Below are positions 15,753-26,339 of a stretch of 64,000 bases of DNA, one piece after another (within the stretch, counting starts at the first letter, position 1; the number at the start of each line of letters is the position of its first letter). The DNA lies in contig JAHFLF010000001.1 in NCBI GenBank assembly GCA_023255625.1, forward strand, positions 94,255-158,254, given 5' to 3'. This stretch comes from Candidatus Harrisonbacteria bacterium. GTDB taxonomy: Bacteria > Patescibacteriota > Minisyncoccia > UBA6257 > 1-14-0-10-44-23. The notes under the pieces are model-generated. The model ran no database searches. It saw only the letters and a list, made by a program, of their open reading frames with translations, and was not told the DNA's origin. The translations under genes and the position numbers were made by a program.

Positions 15753-17972
15753 TTACGGTTTTTCGATTACTTTTTCAGCATCTTCTAATTTTATTGAAAG
15801 CAACTTACTCGTGCCGTCTGCGGCCATAGTTACACCATAAAGAACATTGGCGGCACTCATCGTCGCGCGGTTGTGAGTAACGATAACGAACTGGGTCTTG
15901 CCACCAAAATTCTCTACTAAATTCGCAAATCGTTTGGTATTATTTTCGTCCAGTGCGGCATCAACCTCATCCAACACTAAAAATGGCGGTGGGCTGACGG
16001 CGATGAGCGCGAACAACACGGCAATAGAAACCAAACTGCGCTCACCGCCAGACAGCAGATCCAATCCTTTAATATTCTTACGCGGGATGGCCAGCTCAAT
16101 ATCCAAACCCGCCTCCTGTGGCTCTTGCTCGCTCTCCCCGAGTAGAACTTCCTCGCTCGGTCCTTCCTTGGCCTCCGTAGCTTTAGCGAAGGATGGCTTC
16201 TCCAAATGCAATTTCGCCTTCCCGCCGTTAAACATCAAGCGGAAGTAATTATTAAATTCCTCGTTGACGAGGTGCAAGGACTTCGTAAATTCTTCATGCA
16301 ACTTCTTTTTTAAATCTGAAATCAACTGCTTTAAATCTTTTGTCGCCTTTTCTAAATCCTCAATCTGCTTTTCCAAAAATGCATATCGCTCCTCCATCTG
16401 CTTGGCTTGCTCAATCATGGCCGGATCAATATCACCTATCGCAGCCAACTCCCCGCGCAGCTTCAGCATCCGATGTTCAACATCTACAATTTGAACATCG
16501 CCCTGCGAAGCCTCTGGCGAAGCATGGGTAGCGTTGAATTCAGAGAGATTGCGACCCGCCTGCCGTGCCTGATGCTCAAGCTCACCGCGGCGCATGGTTA
16601 TCTTCTCCCGCTCAAACTGCAAGCGGCTCTTGTGTGTCTCCAGTGTATTTATTTCATTTTGTTTCTGCTGCACCTTTTCAAATGCGGCTTTAAAAAGTAC
16701 ATTGAACTCGCGCATCTCACCGGCAAGCTTATTTTCCATTGTCCCCAGCTCGCTCAAATGCTTCTCAAGCTGCTCAAGCTCACTAAGTAATTTTTTCTTC
16801 ACCTCGGCAAGATCGTCGTGACGGTTTTTTGCCTCGCGGCTGCCGCCGTCAAGCACGCCCTCTATTTTATCGGACAACATCGAAAGCAATTTCTTAATCG
16901 CAGCAATATCATCAGCGGCAAGCGCCTGCGCAATCGCCTCTTTGGCATCCTTCACAACCGACAGCAGTTCCGCCTCTTTGACGGTTGCCTTCGGTCTGGA
17001 TAGCAAAAACTCAATCTCCGCCTCTAGCCGGCCCAACTCTTTTTGAATCTGACCACGACGGCCAAATAATTCAGTCTGCTTCTTTTTGAAATCAGCATAT
17101 GGATCGGCTGCGGGTTTACCCTCCGTAGCTTCAGCGAAGGAGGGCTGTCGCTTTTCTACTGCCGAAAGCTCCTCTCGCAACTCATGCAAATCTTTTTGTT
17201 TTTCAGCAAGCTGGCCATCAAGTAACTTCACCTGGGGCTCAATTTTTTCTTCATCAACTTTGAGCTCAAAAAGTTTTGCGCCAAAATATTGCTGCTCAAA
17301 ACTCGCCAGCTCTTGCTTCACTTGATCATGCTTTTCAAATCGGCCGGCCTGGCGGCGCAAAATCCGAAGTGATGGCAAGAGCTCCTCAACCAGCGCCCGC
17401 GCCTTATCCAAATTAACTCCGGTTGTCTCCAATTTATTCTCCGCCTCATGCCTCTTAATCTGATACTGACGCAGGCCCAGCACCTCTTCAAGCATCACGC
17501 GCCTCTCAATCGGACTAGCTTTGATAAACAAATCAGCGTTGCCCTGGTTGATGATTGCAAATCCTTTTGTACCCAACCGCGCCTTACTGAAAAAGTCCAC
17601 AATGTCGCGCATGCGCACCTCACCTTCATTAATAAAGTAAGCAGAGGTGCCGTCGCGGGTTACCCGGCGGCGAATCGTAACCTCGGTGTAATCAACCGGA
17701 AAAAAGTGTGTGCTGTTATCAAAGGTAATTTTGACCTCGGCAAACGATGACCGCGGCCGCTGCAAAGTACCCGAGTACAACAAATTCTCGCTCTTTTCAG
17801 CGCGAATATTCTTTGCCTCGCGCTCTCCCAAAATCCAGCGCAGCGCGTCAATCACATTTGATTTGCCTGAACCGTTTGGCCCGACAATAGCCGTGACTCC
17901 CTCGCCAAACTCCAGCGAGGTCTTTGAGGCAAAAGACTTAAAACCTAATAATTCAAGACGCTTGAGATACAT
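15753..17972 (-). CDS. smc: short SMC-family ATPase
   Basis: GFKSFA, GPNGSGKSN, LSGGE, LDEVDAALD; only 739 aa. Confidence 0.88.
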   Translation of the reverse strand: MYLKRLELLGFKSFASKTSLEFGEGVTAIVGPNGSGKSNVIDALRWILGEREAKNIRAEKSENLLYSGTLQRPRSSFAEVKITFDNSTHFFPVDYTEVTIRRRVTRDGTSAYFINEGEVRMRDIVDFFSKARLGTKGFAIINQGNADLFIKASPIERRVMLEEVLGLRQYQIKRHEAENKLETTGVNLDKARALVEELLPSLRILRRQAGRFEKHDQVKQELASFEQQYFGAKLFELKVDEEKIEPQVKLLDGQLAEKQKDLHELREELSAVEKRQPSFAEATEGKPAADPYADFKKKQTELFGRRGQIQKELGRLEAEIEFLLSRPKATVKEAELLSVVKDAKEAIAQALAADDIAAIKKLLSMLSDKIEGVLDGGSREAKNRHDDLAEVKKKLLSELEQLEKHLSELGTMENKLAGEMREFNVLFKAAFEKVQQKQNEINTLETHKSRLQFEREKITMRRGELEHQARQAGRNLSEFNATHASPEASQGDVQIVDVEHRMLKLRGELAAIGDIDPAMIEQAKQMEERYAFLEKQIEDLEKATKDLKQLISDLKKKLHEEFTKSLHLVNEEFNNYFRLMFNGGKAKLHLEKPSFAKATEAKEGPSEEVLLGESEQEPQEAGLDIELAIPRKNIKGLDLLSGGERSLVSIAVLFALIAVSPPPFLVLDEVDAALDENNTKRFANLVENFGGKTQFVIVTHNRATMSAANVLYGVTMAADGTSKLLSIKLEDAEKVIEKP

Positions 17973-18072: not shown

Positions 18073-19794
18073 TCATGCCACCTCTTGCTGGTAACAGGGC
18101 TCACAGTAAACGATCTCGGGCTGTGTTGGCGCGTATGAAGTTTGAATAGGATCCTTGCACTTCTGGCACTCACGATCATAGACCTGGAGCTTGGTGCGCT
18201 GGCTAATGCGGGCAAAGTGGCGGCAGTTTGAGCAAAGCCTCGGGAGCGGCAGATTCATGCTGCGATAAAATGCGAGTTCATCAGGAAGTACGCGGAATGC
18301 AAGCGTACATTGGTCATTGCACGATCCGGCATGCTCGCAGCCAATAATATCTGCAGTAATAGCATCCGGAACGTCCTTAATATTATCCGGTAACTCACTC
18401 GCCGGCTTAGTCACTGTATAGTTGCGCTGTGCCGCATCGCGCCACGTAAAACCACTCGCTTGTGCCTGCTCTTTGGTAAGCGGAAAGTTCTCTTGTGCCA
18501 GCGTCTCGTTGTAGGCAAACGGCGAAAGCTCTGCCGGAAAATACTCGCCATATTTGTAAATCCTCCCCTGTGCATCTAGATATGGCATTGCATCCATCTG
18601 CGCCTTAATCTTTGCAACCAGCGCAACATACTCCTCTTTTGAATACTGCTTGTTTAAAATGCAGTACTCTTTTTTGCGGAGTCCAACGCAGCCAAATAAA
18701 TTTGATGAGGCCTGACACATATACGAATACTCAATGTCATGCACCTGCTCCTGCACGTTGTAGCAAAACTTGATGTTGTTGGTGCCGAGACCGCACGCAG
18801 TGCATTCATAAATCTGCTGGTTACCTGCTCCCCACGCAGTGTAGTCATAACAATCTTTGCTGGCGGGCGTCTCCTGTACATACTGACAGTAACGCAAATT
18901 CTCGCCTTCACGCACTAAAAATGAGTTGCGCACATTGCGAGAGTGGGAAATGTAATTGCCAGAAACATCGGTATTCTGCAGGCCATTAATATACTTATTG
19001 GGGAACTTCAGCCAGAACGCCCTCGCCTGCTCCCGCATAGCCTGCACGGCCGCATACGAACCAAGATTATATTCAGTAATCTTTTTCTCATACTCCTCCT
19101 TCGTATACTGCTCATTCCATATGCAGTAAGACTTTTTACGCAACCCGACGCAACCAAAACAGTTGCTTACGCCGACACAGTCTTTGGAAAATGCAATGTC
19201 GTACGAGCTCTCACATTGCGAAGAAAAAATCGCGTTGCGACACGAAGAAAGCCAAAATCCTTCATAGCATCGCTCAGACTTTTGAAGATGCGAATTATCA
19301 ACGCAATTCTTCACGCCGCCCAGCCCGTTGCCATACATGCAGTCCTCTGCGCCCTGGCCGTTGAAAGTTAAATAACAATTTTTTGGATCAGTAAAATTAT
19401 TCACATAATCACTATTCACGCCATTTACCACATTCAGATTTTTAAGCGGTACGCTGTGGAGCAATTCTTTGAACTGCTCAAAAAATGACTTTGCTTCATC
19501 AAAGTCGCGGCCATAGGTCATCGGGTCCCACAAATCAGAAAGCCAGACATCTTTTTCGTATACCTTCACGGACGAGTCGGGTGCAAAGGCAGAAAAAATA
19601 TCCTTGCCCGAATAATCACTCTTCCGTTTAAATAAAAATCGTTCATTACGAAACGCCATTCTGCGCTGTGCCCGACACAACCAACAAAACGTTGGCGGCG
19701 GCACCGAAACTTTTTTGTAAAATTCCAAATCAGCAGAATCAATAATGAAATCCTGTTTGCAGTTCTGGCAATTTCTAGTTTCCGAGGTTGTCAT
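18073..19794 (-). CDS. Cys-rich repeat protein with terminal zinc ribbons (paralog 1)
   Basis: CxxC at both termini, repeated CFGCVGL/CY motifs, ends CYQQEVA. Confidence 0.85.
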   Translation of the reverse strand: MTTSETRNCQNCKQDFIIDSADLEFYKKVSVPPPTFCWLCRAQRRMAFRNERFLFKRKSDYSGKDIFSAFAPDSSVKVYEKDVWLSDLWDPMTYGRDFDEAKSFFEQFKELLHSVPLKNLNVVNGVNSDYVNNFTDPKNCYLTFNGQGAEDCMYGNGLGGVKNCVDNSHLQKSERCYEGFWLSSCRNAIFSSQCESSYDIAFSKDCVGVSNCFGCVGLRKKSYCIWNEQYTKEEYEKKITEYNLGSYAAVQAMREQARAFWLKFPNKYINGLQNTDVSGNYISHSRNVRNSFLVREGENLRYCQYVQETPASKDCYDYTAWGAGNQQIYECTACGLGTNNIKFCYNVQEQVHDIEYSYMCQASSNLFGCVGLRKKEYCILNKQYSKEEYVALVAKIKAQMDAMPYLDAQGRIYKYGEYFPAELSPFAYNETLAQENFPLTKEQAQASGFTWRDAAQRNYTVTKPASELPDNIKDVPDAITADIIGCEHAGSCNDQCTLAFRVLPDELAFYRSMNLPLPRLCSNCRHFARISQRTKLQVYDRECQKCKDPIQTSYAPTQPEIVYCEPCYQQEVA

Positions 19795-19822
19795 AGCTAC
19801 CAACCTAATGATACCACCTAAC

Positions 19823-20989
19823 TTAACCTAAAAATTTCTCACTGTGTTTTACCAAATCAGTGTAATAGTTCATATATGAATCAGCCAAGGCTTGATCTTT
19901 TATTTCTATAACCGTCGGGATAGGATCAAAAATCTGCAAAAGTACGGTGCCATCGCTATTGATGTTAATATCAGCCATATTTTGCATGCTCCGCGAAAGT
20001 ATAGATAAATTATTTAAATGCGGACATTCTTTCGCGAGCCGCCTGTCTTCTTCACCATATTCATACATCAACATATCCCACGCAATATTCTTTTTGACAC
20101 GCAGTGCATCGTATTCTTTGTACGCGTTTCCCATCGGCCCGTACCATGTGTTTCCTAATCCCCCGATGATTGTAATCCGACTATTTTCAGGTAACCGATT
20201 GAGCAATGCTAAATGATATGCCTGAAACTCTTCCTTGCCGGAATATATTTTTACATTAGACGCGCCCAAGGAGGCGTTGGCAATGAAATTACTGATTCGT
20301 TTATTTTTTGACTCCAAAAGAAATTCATACGACTTTCCTTTTTTAATAATTTCCCCGTTTTCCATAAAGCAAACCGTATCGGCATTGGAAATGGCAAAAT
20401 TAATGTCATGTGCAACCATGAGAATACCGACGCCTCTTTTTTTAATCGCAACTAAGTGCGACAAAATAATTTCTGACTGCTCAACATCAAGCGAAGAGGT
20501 AATCTCGTCTAATAATAAATACTGCGGTTTGAGGGCAAGCGCGCGTACGAGCGCCACCCGTTGCCGCTGTCCGACCGAAGCCTCATTCGGAAAACGGTCA
20601 AGAAAACCTTTCATCTCAAACATTTCATAGAGCTCCTCAAGATACTCTGTGTTATCTTTTAAAGCGCCCCGCACTTCAAGTGGTAATTCAATATTTTTCC
20701 GAAGCGTCAGGTGCGGCCAAATAAACAATTGCTGAAAAACAACGGAAACCCGCGGCCACGGCGGGACAATGTCTTGAGGGGCCAGAGGGAAAGAGTATCC
20801 AGTAGAATCTATTGTCATTGTCCCTGTTTCGGGCAAATCCAACAAAGAGATTGCCTTGAGCAGTGTCGTCTTGCCGCTTCCGCTTGGGCCGATTATAGAA
20901 GTAATCGTTCCTGGTTTAACCTCTAAGCTAACGTTACGCAAAACAACATGGTCACCGAATTTTTTTGTTATGTTAGTTACTCGCAACAT
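19823..20989 (-). CDS. polar amino-acid ABC ATPase with C-terminal extension
   Basis: GPSGSGKT, VFQQ, SVGQRQR, LLLDE; about 140 extra C-terminal aa. Confidence 0.88.
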   Translation of the reverse strand: MLRVTNITKKFGDHVVLRNVSLEVKPGTITSIIGPSGSGKTTLLKAISLLDLPETGTMTIDSTGYSFPLAPQDIVPPWPRVSVVFQQLFIWPHLTLRKNIELPLEVRGALKDNTEYLEELYEMFEMKGFLDRFPNEASVGQRQRVALVRALALKPQYLLLDEITSSLDVEQSEIILSHLVAIKKRGVGILMVAHDINFAISNADTVCFMENGEIIKKGKSYEFLLESKNKRISNFIANASLGASNVKIYSGKEEFQAYHLALLNRLPENSRITIIGGLGNTWYGPMGNAYKEYDALRVKKNIAWDMLMYEYGEEDRRLAKECPHLNNLSILSRSMQNMADININSDGTVLLQIFDPIPTVIEIKDQALADSYMNYYTDLVKHSEKFLG

Positions 20990-20990
20990 A

Positions 20991-21656
20991 TTATTTTTCG
21001 GACAAGTTTCTCGTGTATTTATTTTTGAACCAATATGCGAGTAGATTAAGCGGTAAGCAGATTGCGATGAAGAACACGGCAAGTGCTGTATAGATTTCTA
21101 TGGGCTTGTACACTACCGAGTTAATCTGTTGCGCCACACGAAAAAGCTCTGAGACAGAAATCAGACTGGCGAATAAAGTCAGTTGAAGCATGCTGACTTG
21201 CAGGGTAAGAAATTGCGGAATAGTCTGGCGAAAAATAATCGGCAGCTCTATTTTTGAAAAAATTTCTCTCGCTGTAAGTCCGCACACCTTCCCCGCGATC
21301 ACATACTGATCTGGAAAATCATCCAGCGCATCTCTAACTATTTGAGCAACGCCCACAATATTAATTAAGGAAAGTGCAAATGCTGCGGTTATGAATGGAA
21401 TAATCACGACCCCAAGAAGCGCTTGGAGTGGATAATGCAGCCAGAACAAAAGCACTAAAACTGGCGTACTCGCCAAAAGAAAAGAAAGAATTTTAAGAAA
21501 CCAACCGGTACTTTCTTTTTGCCGATGCGCAAACGCTCCAAAGAGTACGCCGAAAACCAAGCCCGAAAACCAAATAATCAGGCACAATCCAAGAGTTACA
21601 AGAAGGCCTGATAGCAGGCCTTCTTTGTAGGTGTAAATTATATTCCACACTGACAT
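20991..21656 (-). CDS. amino-acid ABC permease
   Basis: TPVLVLLF, SLISVSELF; HisM/GlnP-like. Confidence 0.88.
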   Translation of the reverse strand: MSVWNIIYTYKEGLLSGLLVTLGLCLIIWFSGLVFGVLFGAFAHRQKESTGWFLKILSFLLASTPVLVLLFWLHYPLQALLGVVIIPFITAAFALSLINIVGVAQIVRDALDDFPDQYVIAGKVCGLTAREIFSKIELPIIFRQTIPQFLTLQVSMLQLTLFASLISVSELFRVAQQINSVVYKPIEIYTALAVFFIAICLPLNLLAYWFKNKYTRNLSEK

Positions 21657-21660
21657 ACGG

Positions 21661-22539
21661 TTACTTGGCAACTACATATGGCGGCGCAGCCCGGTAGAAA
21701 CCGCCCGGGTAGTCTTTTTCAAATCCGTTGATTACGCCGTCAACATAGCCGTTATTCAATAATTCAATAAGAGCATTATCAATGGTTGACTTGAATGTAA
21801 ACTCTCCCTTTTTGATCATCATGACATTGCCGTAGATGACGACCGGCTTAACAACGGAAACATTTTTTACTTTCCCGGGGTTATTTTTTATGTACGCATT
21901 GGCAACTGTCGGCTCTAAAAATGCCATATCAACTTTGCCATCAACAACATTGAGAAGCATTTGAGAAACGTCTGTCAGCTGCGGCAATTGGAGAGTCTTA
22001 GCATTTGGGAATTGGCGAGAAGCGATCAGTTGTGATGTTTCTCCGTCAATAGTCGCTAATTTATAATTTGCGTTATTCGCAACCGTTACATCACTGTTAA
22101 ATCTATTATCACTGGCGCGGACATATGCGTTAATAGCGCTATAGTAAACGGGCTCCGAAAACTCCGCACTTTTACCGCGTGTTGAATTACTCCACGACGG
22201 AGAACCGATAATGTCGCATTTGCTGGAATTAAGGGCTTCAATCATATCTCCCCAACCAACTTCGGTATTCCAATCAACTTTCAGGCCCATATTTTCTGCC
22301 GCCTTGTCCAACGTTTGCACGAACACACCTGATAATTTCCCGGTATTGGGGTCTTTAATAGAGGCCGGCGGGTAGACGACATAGCAAGCCCGTATAGTGC
22401 CGGAACTAATTACTCTGTCGTACACGGAACTCCCTGCTAAACTTACCGGCGAAGAACCGGACAATTTTATCGTAATTAAACTCACTACGACAGTCAGAAT
22501 CACAACGCCAAGGATTTTGAACCAATTTCCATTTTTCAT
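21661..22539 (-). CDS. amino-acid ABC substrate-binding protein (family 3)
   Basis: YPP, WGDMIEAL..KCDII, FSEP. Confidence 0.88.
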   Translation of the reverse strand: MKNGNWFKILGVVILTVVVSLITIKLSGSSPVSLAGSSVYDRVISSGTIRACYVVYPPASIKDPNTGKLSGVFVQTLDKAAENMGLKVDWNTEVGWGDMIEALNSSKCDIIGSPSWSNSTRGKSAEFSEPVYYSAINAYVRASDNRFNSDVTVANNANYKLATIDGETSQLIASRQFPNAKTLQLPQLTDVSQMLLNVVDGKVDMAFLEPTVANAYIKNNPGKVKNVSVVKPVVIYGNVMMIKKGEFTFKSTIDNALIELLNNGYVDGVINGFEKDYPGGFYRAAPPYVVAK

Positions 22540-22600
22540 AATTAATAAAGATATTTGATAATAATGATACCACGCTCATAGCGGCTCACTTTTGCCCGAC

Positions 22601-22749
22601 GAAAACAAAAGAGCGCCCAACTTAGAGCCTTTCTCGGCTCGTGGTCGCTCAAATTCAGATCCGAAGGTGCGATCTCGCTTTCGTCCGCACGCTCAGATCA
22701 AAATTCAATACTACGCATTCAAGATAGCATGAATTCAAAATCCTGTCAA
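22601..22749 (-). ncRNA. promoter-hairpin-terminator RNA motif, copy 1
   Basis: TTGACA-17-TATCTT; long G-U stem; GAGCG...CGCTC-TTTTG. Confidence 0.65.
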
Positions 22750-22754
22750 TCCCC

Positions 22755-22798
22755 CGCTGTTATACTAATTCCACGGCCGTTGAATTAGTATAACAGCG
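22755..22798. repeat. 17-bp perfect inverted repeat
   Basis: CGCTGTTATACTAATTC / GAATTAGTATAACAGCG. Confidence 0.85.
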
Positions 22799-22823
22799 AC
22801 TTTATTTTTACTAACTAACCGAC

Positions 22824-22847
22824 TCACGCCACCTCTTGCTGATAGCA
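22824..22847 (-). pseudogene. remnant 3' end (CYQQEVA*) of a third Cys-rich paralog
   Basis: TGCTATCAGCAAGAGGTGGCGTGA. Confidence 0.7.
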
Positions 22848-22881
22848 CCCCAGTACTAGAACCTGCTGGTTCAGTACGGGG
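22848..22881. repeat. CCCC...TACGGGG REP-like hairpin
   Basis: Near-identical to 8357-8390; related copy near 28104-28137. Confidence 0.8.
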
Positions 22882-22897
22882 CATGCTCAATACACAA

Positions 22898-24637
22898 TTA
22901 TGCTACCTCTTGTTGATAACATTCTATGCAATATACTTTTTCGGGCCGGTCGGGGGCGTACGAAGTTTCAAATTGATTTTGGCATTGGGTTTCACCGTGC
23001 TGGTGCGTGGCCGCTCCCGGGCACTGACACGAACGCGGCCAGAGTGTAAGAGGATTGCGTTTCGCAATGCGCTCATAATGGCGGCAGTTTGGGCAGAGCC
23101 GCGGCAATGGCAATGATGCAAGTTTATAGAGAGTCAGGTCTTCCGGCAAAATTCTGAATGCGGTCGTACACTGATGCATGCATCCGTTATGAGCACAACT
23201 TATAATTGCCTTGGTCACCTCATCGCCAGCATCTGCGGCAGAATCCGGCAACTCATCTGGCTGCATCGTAATTTTATAGTTACGCTGCGGTTCATCTCGC
23301 CAGCCATAGCCGGCCACAATAGCATCTTCTTTTGAGAGAGGGAAGAAATCGTGCCCCATTGTTTCGTTGTACACAAATGGCGACAAATCACTTGGAAAAA
23401 ATTCGCCGTACTTGTAGACAAGCCCGCGCTTATCAATATATGGCGTCGTGTCCATTTGCATTTTTATCTTTCCGACCATCGTCTCATACTCCTCTTTGGT
23501 GTATTGCTTGTTCAAAATACAGTACTGACTTTTTTTCATACCAACGCAACCAAACAAATCTTTAGATCCGTGGCAGTTCATGACATATTCGCAATCAATG
23601 ACTTGCTCCCAGCACTCATTGGCAAATTTTAAATTGGCTATTTGTCTACCACAGTTTTGAACTTCATACATACGCTCGGCCGTCGCTCCCCAATGGTTAA
23701 AATCCATTGAATCTTTTGCATCAAAAAGCGAAAGCCCGTACCGAACATTCTGAACATTACGACAGGTGAAAGAACGGGAGACATCCTGACAATGGTCAAT
23801 CCAGTTGCCGCTCACTCGCATCCCTTGGCGCACAACAAGAGCCGGGACAATGAACTGTCTTTTAAATTCATCAAATTTTTTGCGAAGCAGCTCAACGGAA
23901 CGAGCCGAATGTATATTGAGTTCAGCAATTTTTTTCTCATACTCCTCTTTAGTGTACTGTTCGTTCCATATACAGTACTGTTTATTTTTCAAATTTACGC
24001 AGCCGAAAGAATTTTGAACATTCATACAGTTCAGCAAAAACCACGAGTCCGAGCAGTTATTTGATTCTTGCGAAAAGGCAACGCTGTAGCACTGCGAACA
24101 ATCAATGCACTCATAACACCGCTCTGATTTTTGTGTGCCAAAACAATCTAAACACTCTTTTGAGGACATAATCCAGGTACTATACCGAGAGTTTTCCGCG
24201 CCGGTCGTTGCAAACACAAGATAACAATTTTTCATATCTGTTACCCGATTTGTATACTCACTATTGATACTCTGACCCTGCTTGATAATGCCCGGGCGAG
24301 GCACGGCAAGCAGCAATTCTTTGAACTGCTCGAAAAATGGCCGGGTAAAATCGTAATCGCGCGCATATGTTTTTGCATCCCACGACTCTGACCACCAGCA
24401 CGGATAGCAAAAAACAGAATGAGGGCTGTCTGGGCTGTACATCAAAATCTTTTCCTGCTTGCAAAGTCCGCATGGACGCTTAAATAGTGTTCGCTCACTA
24501 CGCCAAATAAATCGCCGGAGCAGCCGGCACTGCGGACAAAATGTCGGCTCGGGTACTTTAAGCATGGTTAAAAACTCCGTGTCCTCCGCGGTAATTTCAA
24601 ACTGCTGCTTGCACTGCTGACAATTTTTTGCTGCCAT
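22898..24637 (-). CDS. Cys-rich repeat protein with zinc ribbons (paralog 2)
   Basis: Collinear with 18073-19794 (PTFC, YGEFFP..LSPF.YNET, LPRLC.NCRH). Confidence 0.85.
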   Translation of the reverse strand: MAAKNCQQCKQQFEITAEDTEFLTMLKVPEPTFCPQCRLLRRFIWRSERTLFKRPCGLCKQEKILMYSPDSPHSVFCYPCWWSESWDAKTYARDYDFTRPFFEQFKELLLAVPRPGIIKQGQSINSEYTNRVTDMKNCYLVFATTGAENSRYSTWIMSSKECLDCFGTQKSERCYECIDCSQCYSVAFSQESNNCSDSWFLLNCMNVQNSFGCVNLKNKQYCIWNEQYTKEEYEKKIAELNIHSARSVELLRKKFDEFKRQFIVPALVVRQGMRVSGNWIDHCQDVSRSFTCRNVQNVRYGLSLFDAKDSMDFNHWGATAERMYEVQNCGRQIANLKFANECWEQVIDCEYVMNCHGSKDLFGCVGMKKSQYCILNKQYTKEEYETMVGKIKMQMDTTPYIDKRGLVYKYGEFFPSDLSPFVYNETMGHDFFPLSKEDAIVAGYGWRDEPQRNYKITMQPDELPDSAADAGDEVTKAIISCAHNGCMHQCTTAFRILPEDLTLYKLASLPLPRLCPNCRHYERIAKRNPLTLWPRSCQCPGAATHQHGETQCQNQFETSYAPDRPEKVYCIECYQQEVA

Positions 24638-24700
24638 AAAAAATAACTACTATTATATTAATTAATAGTAGCATTGGCAGCTGCGCGAGGACTGGTCGCA

Positions 24701-24830
24701 CAACAAAAAGCGGCAAAATATATTGCTCGCTTCAATCCAGATCTAAACGCGCGATTTTCGACTATCCTCACGCTCAGATCCAAACTCAATGCTCTATGAT
24801 TACTTTAGCACTGATTGAGCGCCTTGTAAA
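24701..24830 (-). ncRNA. promoter-hairpin-terminator RNA motif, copy 2
   Basis: TTTACA-17-TAAAGT; 18-bp stem enclosing AGGATAGTCGAAAATCG; terminator. Confidence 0.65.
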
Positions 24831-24836
24831 TGTTCG

Positions 24837-24867
24837 CGGGCCGGCACACCTTGCGGTGGCCGGCCCG
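24837..24867 (-). terminator. GC-rich hairpin after orphan gene
   Basis: CGGGCCGGC...GCCGGCCCG. Confidence 0.55.
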
Positions 24868-24875
24868 GAATTGCT

Positions 24876-25349
24876 TCATGGGTCTCTCCTTGTTGCTTGA
24901 GCTACGAGCGGCGCCAAGACCCTCGTCAAGCTCTTGGCGGCTGCGCCACTGCAGTCGATAGGGGCAACCAAACTACTAAGCGCATCAAGCCACTCCGGGT
25001 CTTGAGGGGTAGTAACCAACATGAATAGCTGGCAAAGCACCTTCCCTCTCGAGCCATCGCTCGGTCGCCCATACTCTAACGCCTCAACGGTATCCTGCAA
25101 GGAACCCCAGAACATGTGAATGCAGGAGTTGCTAGCAGGCCACTCGTGGGCACAACCGTCATGGCTCTCAGCGATTGTCCTCTGAGTCTTGCCATCGTTG
25201 AACTCAAGGCGGGCCCGGCCGTTGCCGTCTTTCAAAAATCCGACAACGAAGTACGGGAAACCGTCACCCATGGGCCCGGTTCGGATCTTCCGCGTCGCCA
25301 CAACCTCCCATCCGTCGAACGCCCGAATGCTCTTATCGATCTTGCTCAT
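24876..25349 (-). CDS. orphan protein, SD-led
   Basis: AAAGAGGTGGACA-ATG; 157 aa. Confidence 0.6.
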   Translation of the reverse strand: MSKIDKSIRAFDGWEVVATRKIRTGPMGDGFPYFVVGFLKDGNGRARLEFNDGKTQRTIAESHDGCAHEWPASNSCIHMFWGSLQDTVEALEYGRPSDGSRGKVLCQLFMLVTTPQDPEWLDALSSLVAPIDCSGAAAKSLTRVLAPLVAQATRRDP

Positions 25350-25371
25350 TGTCCACCTCTTTAGTTTTGGA

Positions 25372-25501
25372 GAAAAAACAAAAAGAGCCCTCAACGCGAG
25401 TGCTCAAATACAGATCCTAAAGCGCGATTTTCGACTATCCTCGCCGTAAGACCTACATTCAATGACAAAATAAGATTAGCATATCATAGCCAATCTGTCA
25501 A
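25372..25501 (-). ncRNA. promoter-hairpin-terminator RNA motif, copy 3
   Basis: TTGACA-17-TAATCT; 16-bp G-U stem; same GAGGATAGTCGAAAATCGCGC core as copy 2. Confidence 0.65.
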
Positions 25502-25538
25502 TCTCTATTTACCTATTCGTACGAATGAGGGCATAGAA

Positions 25539-25631
25539 AAATCCCTCACCGCCTGGTGGCGGTACTCCCTTTAGACGCGGACAACAAATCCCTCACCGCT
25601 ACTGCGGTCCCCTCCCTTTAGGAAAGGGAGA
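25539..25631. repeat. tandem REP-like units
   Basis: AAATCCCTCACCGC...GCGGT...CTCCCTTTAG twice. Confidence 0.65.
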
Positions 25632-25634
25632 ATA

Positions 25635-26339
25635 CTACACCAACGGCCTGCGTTGCTTTTCAATAATTTCAAGTGCTTTTTTGGCTGCGTCTACCTCGCC
25701 GTCTTGTTTGGATGGCCCGCTCCCCTGTGCAACCAGTTTGTCACCAAAATACACGCCAATCGTAAACATTTTTTTGTGGTCAGGCCCTTCTGAAGATAAT
25801 ACTTTGTATACCGGCGTAACTTTAAGCGAGGCCTGCACCTTTTCTTGCAGCAAACTTTTTGCGTCAACATGAAGCGCGTTACGGATAATATCCTCAAGCC
25901 GACTCGTCACAAAGGTGTTAATAAACTTTTTGGCCGCTTTATACTCCCCGTCTAAATAAATGGCGCCAATGAGTGACTCAAATGCATTGGCTAGAATAAC
26001 CTCACGGGCACGCCCGGTGTCTTTCGCCTCACCGCGAGAAAGCAAGACGGCTCCGTCAATCCCGATGCCGCGGGCAACTTCAGCAAGCGTTACATAGTTA
26101 ACGAGCGCAGCACGCACCGAAGTCATCCAGCCCTCTTCTTTGTCTGGGTAGCGATTAAACAGCTCCTCGGTAATCACAAGCTCAAGCACGGCGTCGCCCA
26201 AAAATTCCAGCCGCTCGTTGTTGGCTATCTTCCACTCCGGATGCTCGTTTAAGTAGGAGCGGTGCGTGAGCGCCTCCTGGAGGAGAGCGACACTTGAGAA
26301 CTTATATTTGATTGTTTTCTGGAATTCTTCTTGTTGCAT
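25635..26339 (-). CDS. rnc: ribonuclease III
   Basis: ALTHRSY, NERLEFLGDAVLEL, C-terminal dsRBD. Confidence 0.98.
   Translation of the reverse strand: MQQEEFQKTIKYKFSSVALLQEALTHRSYLNEHPEWKIANNERLEFLGDAVLELVITEELFNRYPDKEEGWMTSVRAALVNYVTLAEVARGIGIDGAVLLSRGEAKDTGRAREVILANAFESLIGAIYLDGEYKAAKKFINTFVTSRLEDIIRNALHVDAKSLLQEKVQASLKVTPVYKVLSSEGPDHKKMFTIGVYFGDKLVAQGSGPSKQDGEVDAAKKALEIIEKQRRPLV

Follow-up and report, generated by a model that had tools for sequence, protein, structure and literature searches.

Several described bacterial RNA systems resemble an element that occurs three times on the minus strand of the DNA analysed here, a 64,000-nucleotide (nt) stretch (the window; contig JAHFLF010000001.1, positions 94,255 to 158,254) of a 0.93-Mb, 12-contig genome of Candidatus Harrisonbacteria bacterium, an ultra-small member of the Patescibacteria, labelled G000 in our genome comparisons. 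Each copy combines a promoter, a long helix rich in G·U pairs and an abutting terminator hairpin. Protein-binding small RNAs (sRNAs) of the 6S and CsrB/RsmZ types are likewise self-contained, mostly helical units with no evident base-pairing seed, but the element has neither a central bubble nor GGA loops, matches no Rfam family and occurs in a single Patescibacteria family only, and neither CsrA nor Hfq was found in the genome. Type III toxin-antitoxin systems (toxIN, cptIN, tenpIN) also unite a promoter, a structured RNA, a terminator and a protein gene in one cassette. The present element differs from them in being a single hairpin per unit, with no tandem repeat array or pseudoknot, and the associated cysteine-rich (Cys-rich) protein has no toxin or RNase match in Pfam or NCBIfam and is encoded by a gene with its own promoter box. 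In the ribonucleic antiterminators (RAT) of BglG/SacY and the ANTAR dual hairpins, as here, the base of a hairpin overlaps the first bases of the terminator, whereas the element's helix is about twice as long and lacks twin hexaloop hairpins. The BglG/SacY RNA-binding domain, CAT_RBD, was not found in the genome, which is 95% complete (the control matched in 4 of 14 genomes), and the antiterminator gain of the element is near shuffle level; no ANTAR protein was matched either, in a search whose control also gave no match.

T-box leaders are recognized by a specifier loop and a UGGN bulge in the antiterminator. The element resembles them (RF00230) in its long first stem, its terminator, the amino-acid transporter that follows one copy and the GCUGA-like apex of two copies, but its consensus fold has neither hallmark, and RF00230 gave no match at E <= 1 in the genome (the control matched in 6 of 14 genomes), in agreement with the initial annotation, which did not recognize a T-box. 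RNase III substrates such as R1.1 and uR1.1, as presented in PMC1540722, and the leader hairpins of rnc or pnp have in common with the element a sufficiently long helix and segments rich in A-U and G·U pairs. In contrast to those leader hairpins, the element lies downstream of rnc under a promoter of its own, and its box pattern is no better than chance.

The helix and its family

The comparisons described below support a real, uncatalogued and narrowly distributed structured RNA family, with no member found outside the bacterial family. The initial annotation had proposed such a family from three promoter-helix-terminator units, and reading the sequence directly confirms all three at their positions; each promoter carries a -35 box (TTGACA or TTTACA), a 17-nt spacer and a TG before the -10 box. 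In copy 1, the promoter (22721..22749, also found by a promoter scan) runs from TTGACA at 22749-22744 to an extended -10 box ending at 22721. The RNA (22651..22714), whose predicted transcription start (+1) at 22714 follows from spacing, comprises a short 5′ leader and the G·U-rich helix P2 (22706-22651, from folding and covariation), followed by the terminator hairpin P3 (-18.5 kcal/mol) and U-run (22602..22650). Copy 2 has its promoter at 24802..24830 (TTTACA 24830-24825, extended -10 ending at 24802; sequence and promoter scan), a predicted +1 at 24795, an RNA at 24734..24795 with P2 at 24786-24734 (18 of 18 pairs formed, seven of them G·U), P3 with its U-run at 24700..24733 and, after the terminator, an extra hairpin P4 (24682..24702) that is also present in a related contig. 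In copy 3, read from the sequence, the promoter (25473..25501; TTGACA 25501-25496, extended -10 ending at 25473) precedes a predicted +1 at 25466, an RNA at 25406..25466 with P2 at 25460-25406, and a terminator and U-run (25372..25405) whose hairpin is the weakest of the three (-7.7 kcal/mol).

Folded from the predicted +1, each copy forms a helix of 21-22 pairs, six or seven of them G·U, and then a terminator hairpin and U-run, as had been described. The z-scores are -4.0, -4.0 and -2.2 for copies 1, 2 and 3, with 0, 0 and 4 of 200 shuffles folding as well. The claimed strand specificity of the pairing is borne out in copies 2 and 3, whose opposite strand folds much worse (z -1.3 and -1.0), and the apical identity of these two copies extends over 21 nt. 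The stems do show the reported 6-nt periodicity, though weakly: sliding the strands by +/-6 leaves 65 of 108 cells paired, against 102 of 108 in register, and no other slide exceeds 53%. The long helix of copy 1 forms only if the RNA starts at the predicted +1; with four extra 5′ bases a different fold wins. When the 29 full TTGACA-type promoters of the genome are ranked by the length of the helix that follows them, the three elements fall within the top four; the other member of that group has one G·U pair and no called terminator.

A search of the genome with nhmmer found these three copies, all in the slot between rnc and an smc-like gene, and none elsewhere. The covariance models of Rfam 15 gave no match at the gathering score in the window, nor at E <= 10 over the element, and none overlapping it in the loci of three relatives. 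A covariance model built from five copies and run on 61 related genomes yielded six matches in three of them (three in G000, two in G003 and one in G009), and each of the three new copies occupies the rnc-smc slot and is followed directly by a Cys-rich gene of about 580 amino acids (aa). Promoter and intrinsic terminator motifs, with their folds, are present in all six copies, and the predicted +1 is a purine 7 nt after the -10 box in five and 6-7 nt after it in the sixth.

Across the six copies, 114 of 120 cells are paired (95%) and 5 of 20 pairs have changed on both sides. Only 1-4 of 500 shuffles reach the observed pairing values, slid registers pair at 43% or less, and RNAalifold recovers the same helix unprompted; with six full related copies, such figures are supportive rather than formal covariation statistics. 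In the 18-pair stem, the 108 cells comprise 75 Watson-Crick pairs, 27 G·U pairs and 6 others. If each distinct state is counted once per column, there are 13 for G·U and 2 for A·C (p 0.004), whereas a decaying DNA palindrome would give the two equally, and the helix thus looks selected as RNA. Identity is 65-80% in the core against 7-57% in the adjacent promoter spacer. Of the helix columns 19 of 36 are invariant, of the loop columns 0 of 10, a distribution that speaks against both a pocket for a metabolite and a seed in the loop. The proposal of a new family thus stands on the missing Rfam match, the covariation and the G·U bias, and of the two roles offered with it, an attenuator or riboswitch and an sRNA of about 100 nt, the latter fits better.

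Some structural alternatives were rejected. A DNA palindrome of the repetitive extragenic palindromic (REP) or miniature inverted-repeat transposable element (MITE) type disagrees with the 13-to-2 ratio and with the restriction of three copies to one slot. Kissing-loop dimerization was considered in view of short palindromes in five of the six loops, which are indistinguishable from chance and descent. Integron attC sites carry a GTT/AAC core, and by eye the element has none.

Further searches define the range of the family. A second model (R2) applied to 12 family and 151 order genomes gave extra matches (E 0.007-0.43) that were discarded as promoter-only, with unrelated hairpins after them; model R1 on 151 class genomes matched the genome of origin only. 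A pattern search of 401 order genomes gave three further matches, none confirmed by the model, and a 17-mer matched 107 of 401 phylum genomes, where the reversed control also matched widely and 30 loci checked with the model gave no match. No model match was obtained at 76 loci with homologues of the Cys-rich protein from other genomes (the best 80 of 583), and among the 40 with the longest helices of 164 regions upstream of such homologues, none was similar. Phage and plasmid records held no match to the element. A metagenome pattern scan returned 61 loci, of which one (L049) is real and has the same sequence as the G009 copy; of two viral scans, one found 0 loci and the other, covering 12 of 64 parts, found 120, none homologous. 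Searches of titles and abstracts in the literature showed no description of the motif, which may still be an unnamed entry in motif-discovery supplements. In a DNA sequencing run (X2), a 251-nt contig of depth 2 matches the P4 and inner-promoter part of copy 2 with 5 differences in 56, and its loose end reads as another terminator opening with AAGC, probably a partial seventh copy, for which a single contig is a weak basis. Three DNA runs from one study, which may be the source of the DNA analysed here, gave no supported joint between copies. As a separate observation, two relatives have full promoters followed by hairpins of about 20-22 bp of unrelated sequence (L159, G004:C7:33748-33849; L161, G008:C1:293046-293131), the one in G004 preceding an ORF (open reading frame) led by a Shine-Dalgarno (SD) sequence.

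The rnc-smc slot and its genes

All three elements lie inside a 7.7-kb insert between rnc and the smc-like gene, and the whole slot is on the minus strand, in the order rnc, copy 3, a 157-aa orphan ORF, copy 2, Cys-rich gene A, copy 1, three ABC genes, Cys-rich gene B and smc. The rnc gene for RNase III (25635..26339, from a profile search) is the upstream edge of this variable slot, and the smc-like gene (15753..17972, from its translation), which is next to rnc in most relatives, is the downstream edge. Among 12 family genomes, the rnc-smc gap is below 200 nt in seven, 855 nt in one and filled by four unrelated genes in another, while Cys-rich genes occupy it in three (G000, G003 and G009). 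These three genomes have the element together with a Cys-rich gene in the slot, and the other nine have neither, a count in which kin are not independent.

Gene A (22898..24637, 579 aa) directly follows copy 2, and a polar amino-acid-type ABC importer (binding protein, permease and ATPase; 19823..22539) stands between copy 1 and gene B (18073..19803). In G003 the order is RNA, gene A, RNA, gene B, the gene B orthologue being directly preceded by RNA, so copy 1 most likely corresponds to the RNA of gene B, from which insertion of the ABC operon has separated it. Since genes A and B belong to separate, well-supported clades that are not sisters, their relationships imply that the RNA was copied independently of the Cys-rich gene at least once, with a further instance ahead of the orphan ORF. 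Searches for the ABC binding protein detected it in 2 of the 12 family genomes, G003 and G009 not among them.

The extended -10 box TGnTAnnnT without a -35 box is the main promoter type in this genome. It occurs 5-35 nt before the start of 136 of 781 crudely called genes, against 2.6% expected, and such boxes peak 5-9 nt before start codons (74 matches in G000), which suggests many leaderless mRNAs. Five of the six genes downstream of the element have an extended -10 box after the terminator and would not need read-through. The initial annotation had assigned boxes of this kind to the ABC operon behind copy 1 and the Cys-rich gene behind copy 2; both were located. The first, TGGTATCAT (22564..22572), is likely the operon's own promoter, the box type being enriched before genes. 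The second, TGCTACTAT (24673-24665), stands with AATGC and a last hairpin, P5, at 24646..24675 before gene A, according to sequence and folding. The palindrome that overlaps the inner -10 box was also considered as an operator, but its variable spacing led to rejection. Copy 3 leads into an SD-led ORF, as claimed (SD 25360-25353, ORF 25349-24876; together 24876..25360), which has no promoter box of its own; a homologue search with the 157-aa product found only itself, with no usable structure-atlas match. A TTG-started leader peptide, also suggested, has to be abandoned: the frames in the six copies are 17, 43, 23, 10, 10 and 33 aa long with unrelated ends, they are not read in a common frame, and the start is buried in the helix.

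A high-confidence model of the Cys-rich protein (predicted local distance difference test score 90.8) has zinc-finger-like ends, of zinc-ribbon or treble-clef type, around two beta-solenoid blocks, and weak treble-clef and zinc-ribbon matches fall below the cut-off. Treble-clef domains can bind nucleic acids. Foldseek gave no match at E <= 0.001, the best Z score of 5.7, to generic beta-solenoids, being uninformative on function. The relatives of the protein lie in Patescibacteria, no viral homologue was found, and the main text of PMC6744442 does not mention cysteine or zinc. In G000, 13 full-length paralogues lie at C8:27381-68847 and 112330-118891, and three of the paralogues share an identical GC-rich block and a restarted N-terminus upstream.

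Several repeats accompany the slot. A REP-like GC-rich repeat directly 3′ of rnc (25585-25639 and 25539-25552) has several copies in G000 and its relatives, a near-perfect 44-bp palindrome (22755-22798; 22-nt arms, 95%, no loop) lies just upstream of the copy 1 promoter, and, upstream of copy 3, CGTACG stands in a short AT-rich sequence (25504-25537) that recurs before two Cys-rich paralogues elsewhere in the genome. ARAGORN found 49 tRNA genes and no transfer-messenger RNA in G000.

Possible functions of the RNA

Our preferred interpretation, to which we give a probability of about 0.45, is a stand-alone, protein-binding sRNA of 90-110 nt that forms part of a cassette with a Cys-rich gene. 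Abundance of the RNA would follow from its full -35/-10 promoter, a type with few examples in the genome, and transcription would mostly end at P3: the terminator fold is the minimum-energy fold in all six copies and beats the best fold with its 5′ arm paired upstream by 5.7-13.9 kcal/mol. Downstream genes would mostly be driven by their own extended -10 promoters, with leak-through feeding only the orphan ORF after copy 3. A protein may read the helix by its shape, in place of metabolite sensing, and the RNA would hold or titrate this partner, most likely the co-inherited Cys-rich protein of zinc-finger/beta-solenoid type. Reading by shape and the identity of the partner are the weakest links of this scheme. 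RNase III, which is present in the genome together with RNase J and KhpA, would turn the RNA over. Several observations weigh against this interpretation. Six full copies give low power to detect covariation; the G003 and G009 copies have poorer U-runs, with 5-6 U of 8; and the 157-aa ORF, with its good SD and no promoter box, follows the weakest terminator, so its expression would depend on read-through from copy 3. The RNA is not associated with 11 of the 13 full-length paralogues of this genome, and together with the 76 outside loci this indicates that the RNA is no general partner of the Cys-rich family. In addition, all six terminators begin with RAGC, and this sequence is a possible pairing partner of the conserved GCAUU at the 5′ end. 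GCAUU can also pair with the AAUGC before the Cys-rich gene, with a probability of 0.3-0.5 in three of the four copies that precede such a gene and near zero in copy 2, and it is intact in the four copies with AAUGC and changed in the two without (p 0.067). This co-retention hints at a function in read-through RNA, but AAUGC overlaps the inner -10 box and is partly fixed by the promoter consensus, so the link is no independent proof.

The pairings of GCAUU are the basis of the main rival, a protein-controlled attenuator, which we consider somewhat less likely. The helix would serve as a platform on which the Cys-rich product, or RNase III binding without cutting, stabilizes GCAUU-RAGC and blocks P3, giving read-through; the rearranged 5′ end would next engage AAUGC, thereby disabling P5, the last hairpin ahead of the start codon. 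RAGC is kept at the start of P3 although the rest of P3 is unrelated, and it recurs in the partial seventh copy. When transcripts end just past RAGC, pairing of its G and C to the 5′ leader has p 0.97-0.99 in four of six copies. P5 (-5.6 to -9.1 kcal/mol, with variable loops) is present in all four Cys-gene copies, forms only in read-through RNA and nearly equals GCAUU-AAUGC in energy in both G003 copies and in G009, and the copy 3 ORF would depend on read-through. The antiterminator gain, however, is 1.8-4.1 kcal/mol, a value that shuffled leaders reach in 5-10% of trials with the three copies at gene A and in 39-52% with the remaining ones; the lead of the terminator fold, the bypass of the switch that a promoter-type box immediately behind the terminator would offer in five of six copies, and the missing BglG/SacY domain also count against it, and in copy 2 GCAUU-AAUGC is not populated once P5 is included. 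A bolder proposal, and a decidedly less probable one, makes the RNA the cognate partner of the Patescibacteria zinc-finger/twin beta-solenoid family, with the protein reading the G·U-rich helix and being either held inactive by it or opening its own two-gate attenuator. An RNase III-responsive element or decoy, titrating the enzyme or setting the decay of read-through mRNA through the RNase J encoded in this genome, seems improbable. None of the six copies lies farther than about 4 kb from rnc on its downstream side, and the helix exceeds the minimal Escherichia coli substrate of 34 nt given in PMC1540722, but a place beside rnc can reflect a single insertion event, and the RNA is missing from 9 of the 12 family genomes although they have rnc. 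One helix register avoids the G-C pairs that inhibit RNase III at certain positions, a rule taken from PMC1540722 and PMC3074117, but such a register arises by chance in 37%. There is a very small chance that the element is no functional RNA at all, being a decaying DNA palindrome, MITE-like insert or insulator copied with its promoter. Four copies are indeed bounded by short inverted repeats (AGCATT/AATGCT), which are common in the genome, but the G·U bias, the conservation of the core beside a saturated spacer, the use of one slot only and the constant start of the copies at the promoter's predicted +1 speak otherwise. Least probable of all is a metabolite or ion riboswitch for amino-acid or metal genes, which the initial annotation had entertained. 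The amino-acid-type importer behind copy 1, the Cys-rich character of the other genes and the abutting terminator are in its favour, but no loop base is invariant, the structure is nearly all Watson-Crick or wobble helix, no Rfam model matches, the antiterminator gain is small as given above, and the ABC binding protein was not found in G003 or G009.

Base-pairing targets were also considered. No neighbouring mRNA paired with the RNA consistently better than shuffles, in a comparison limited to neighbours, with no genome-wide comparative search. One 17-nt match, at C12:78618-78634 in the leader of an S-layer-like gene, was set aside, its loop part differing in G001 and G002 and the match being absent from the G003 and G009 leaders. 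That leader, of about 480 nt (L172, G000:C12:78420-78900), is a candidate separate RNA motif in its own right: it has conserved blocks, hairpins and repeated GGTTTCGG and GGTCGATC, without an Rfam match, and counterparts in G001 and G002 (L182 and L186), GGTCGATC being found also in G003, G005 and G009.

Meaning for Patescibacteria

PMC11665869 describes gene regulation in Patescibacteria as virtually unknown. With Hfq and CsrA undetected, a conserved multi-copy RNA points to another RNA-protein route. Its range of three genomes limits its general importance. The RNA nevertheless offers a testable handle on a widespread Cys-rich protein family of no known function and, at about 100 nt, is easily made in vitro; if it proves to be the partner of that family, it would provide the family's first ligand and first regulatory circuit. 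The kind of RNA is familiar, but the lineage that carries it is little studied, and its link to an unexplained protein family is directly testable.

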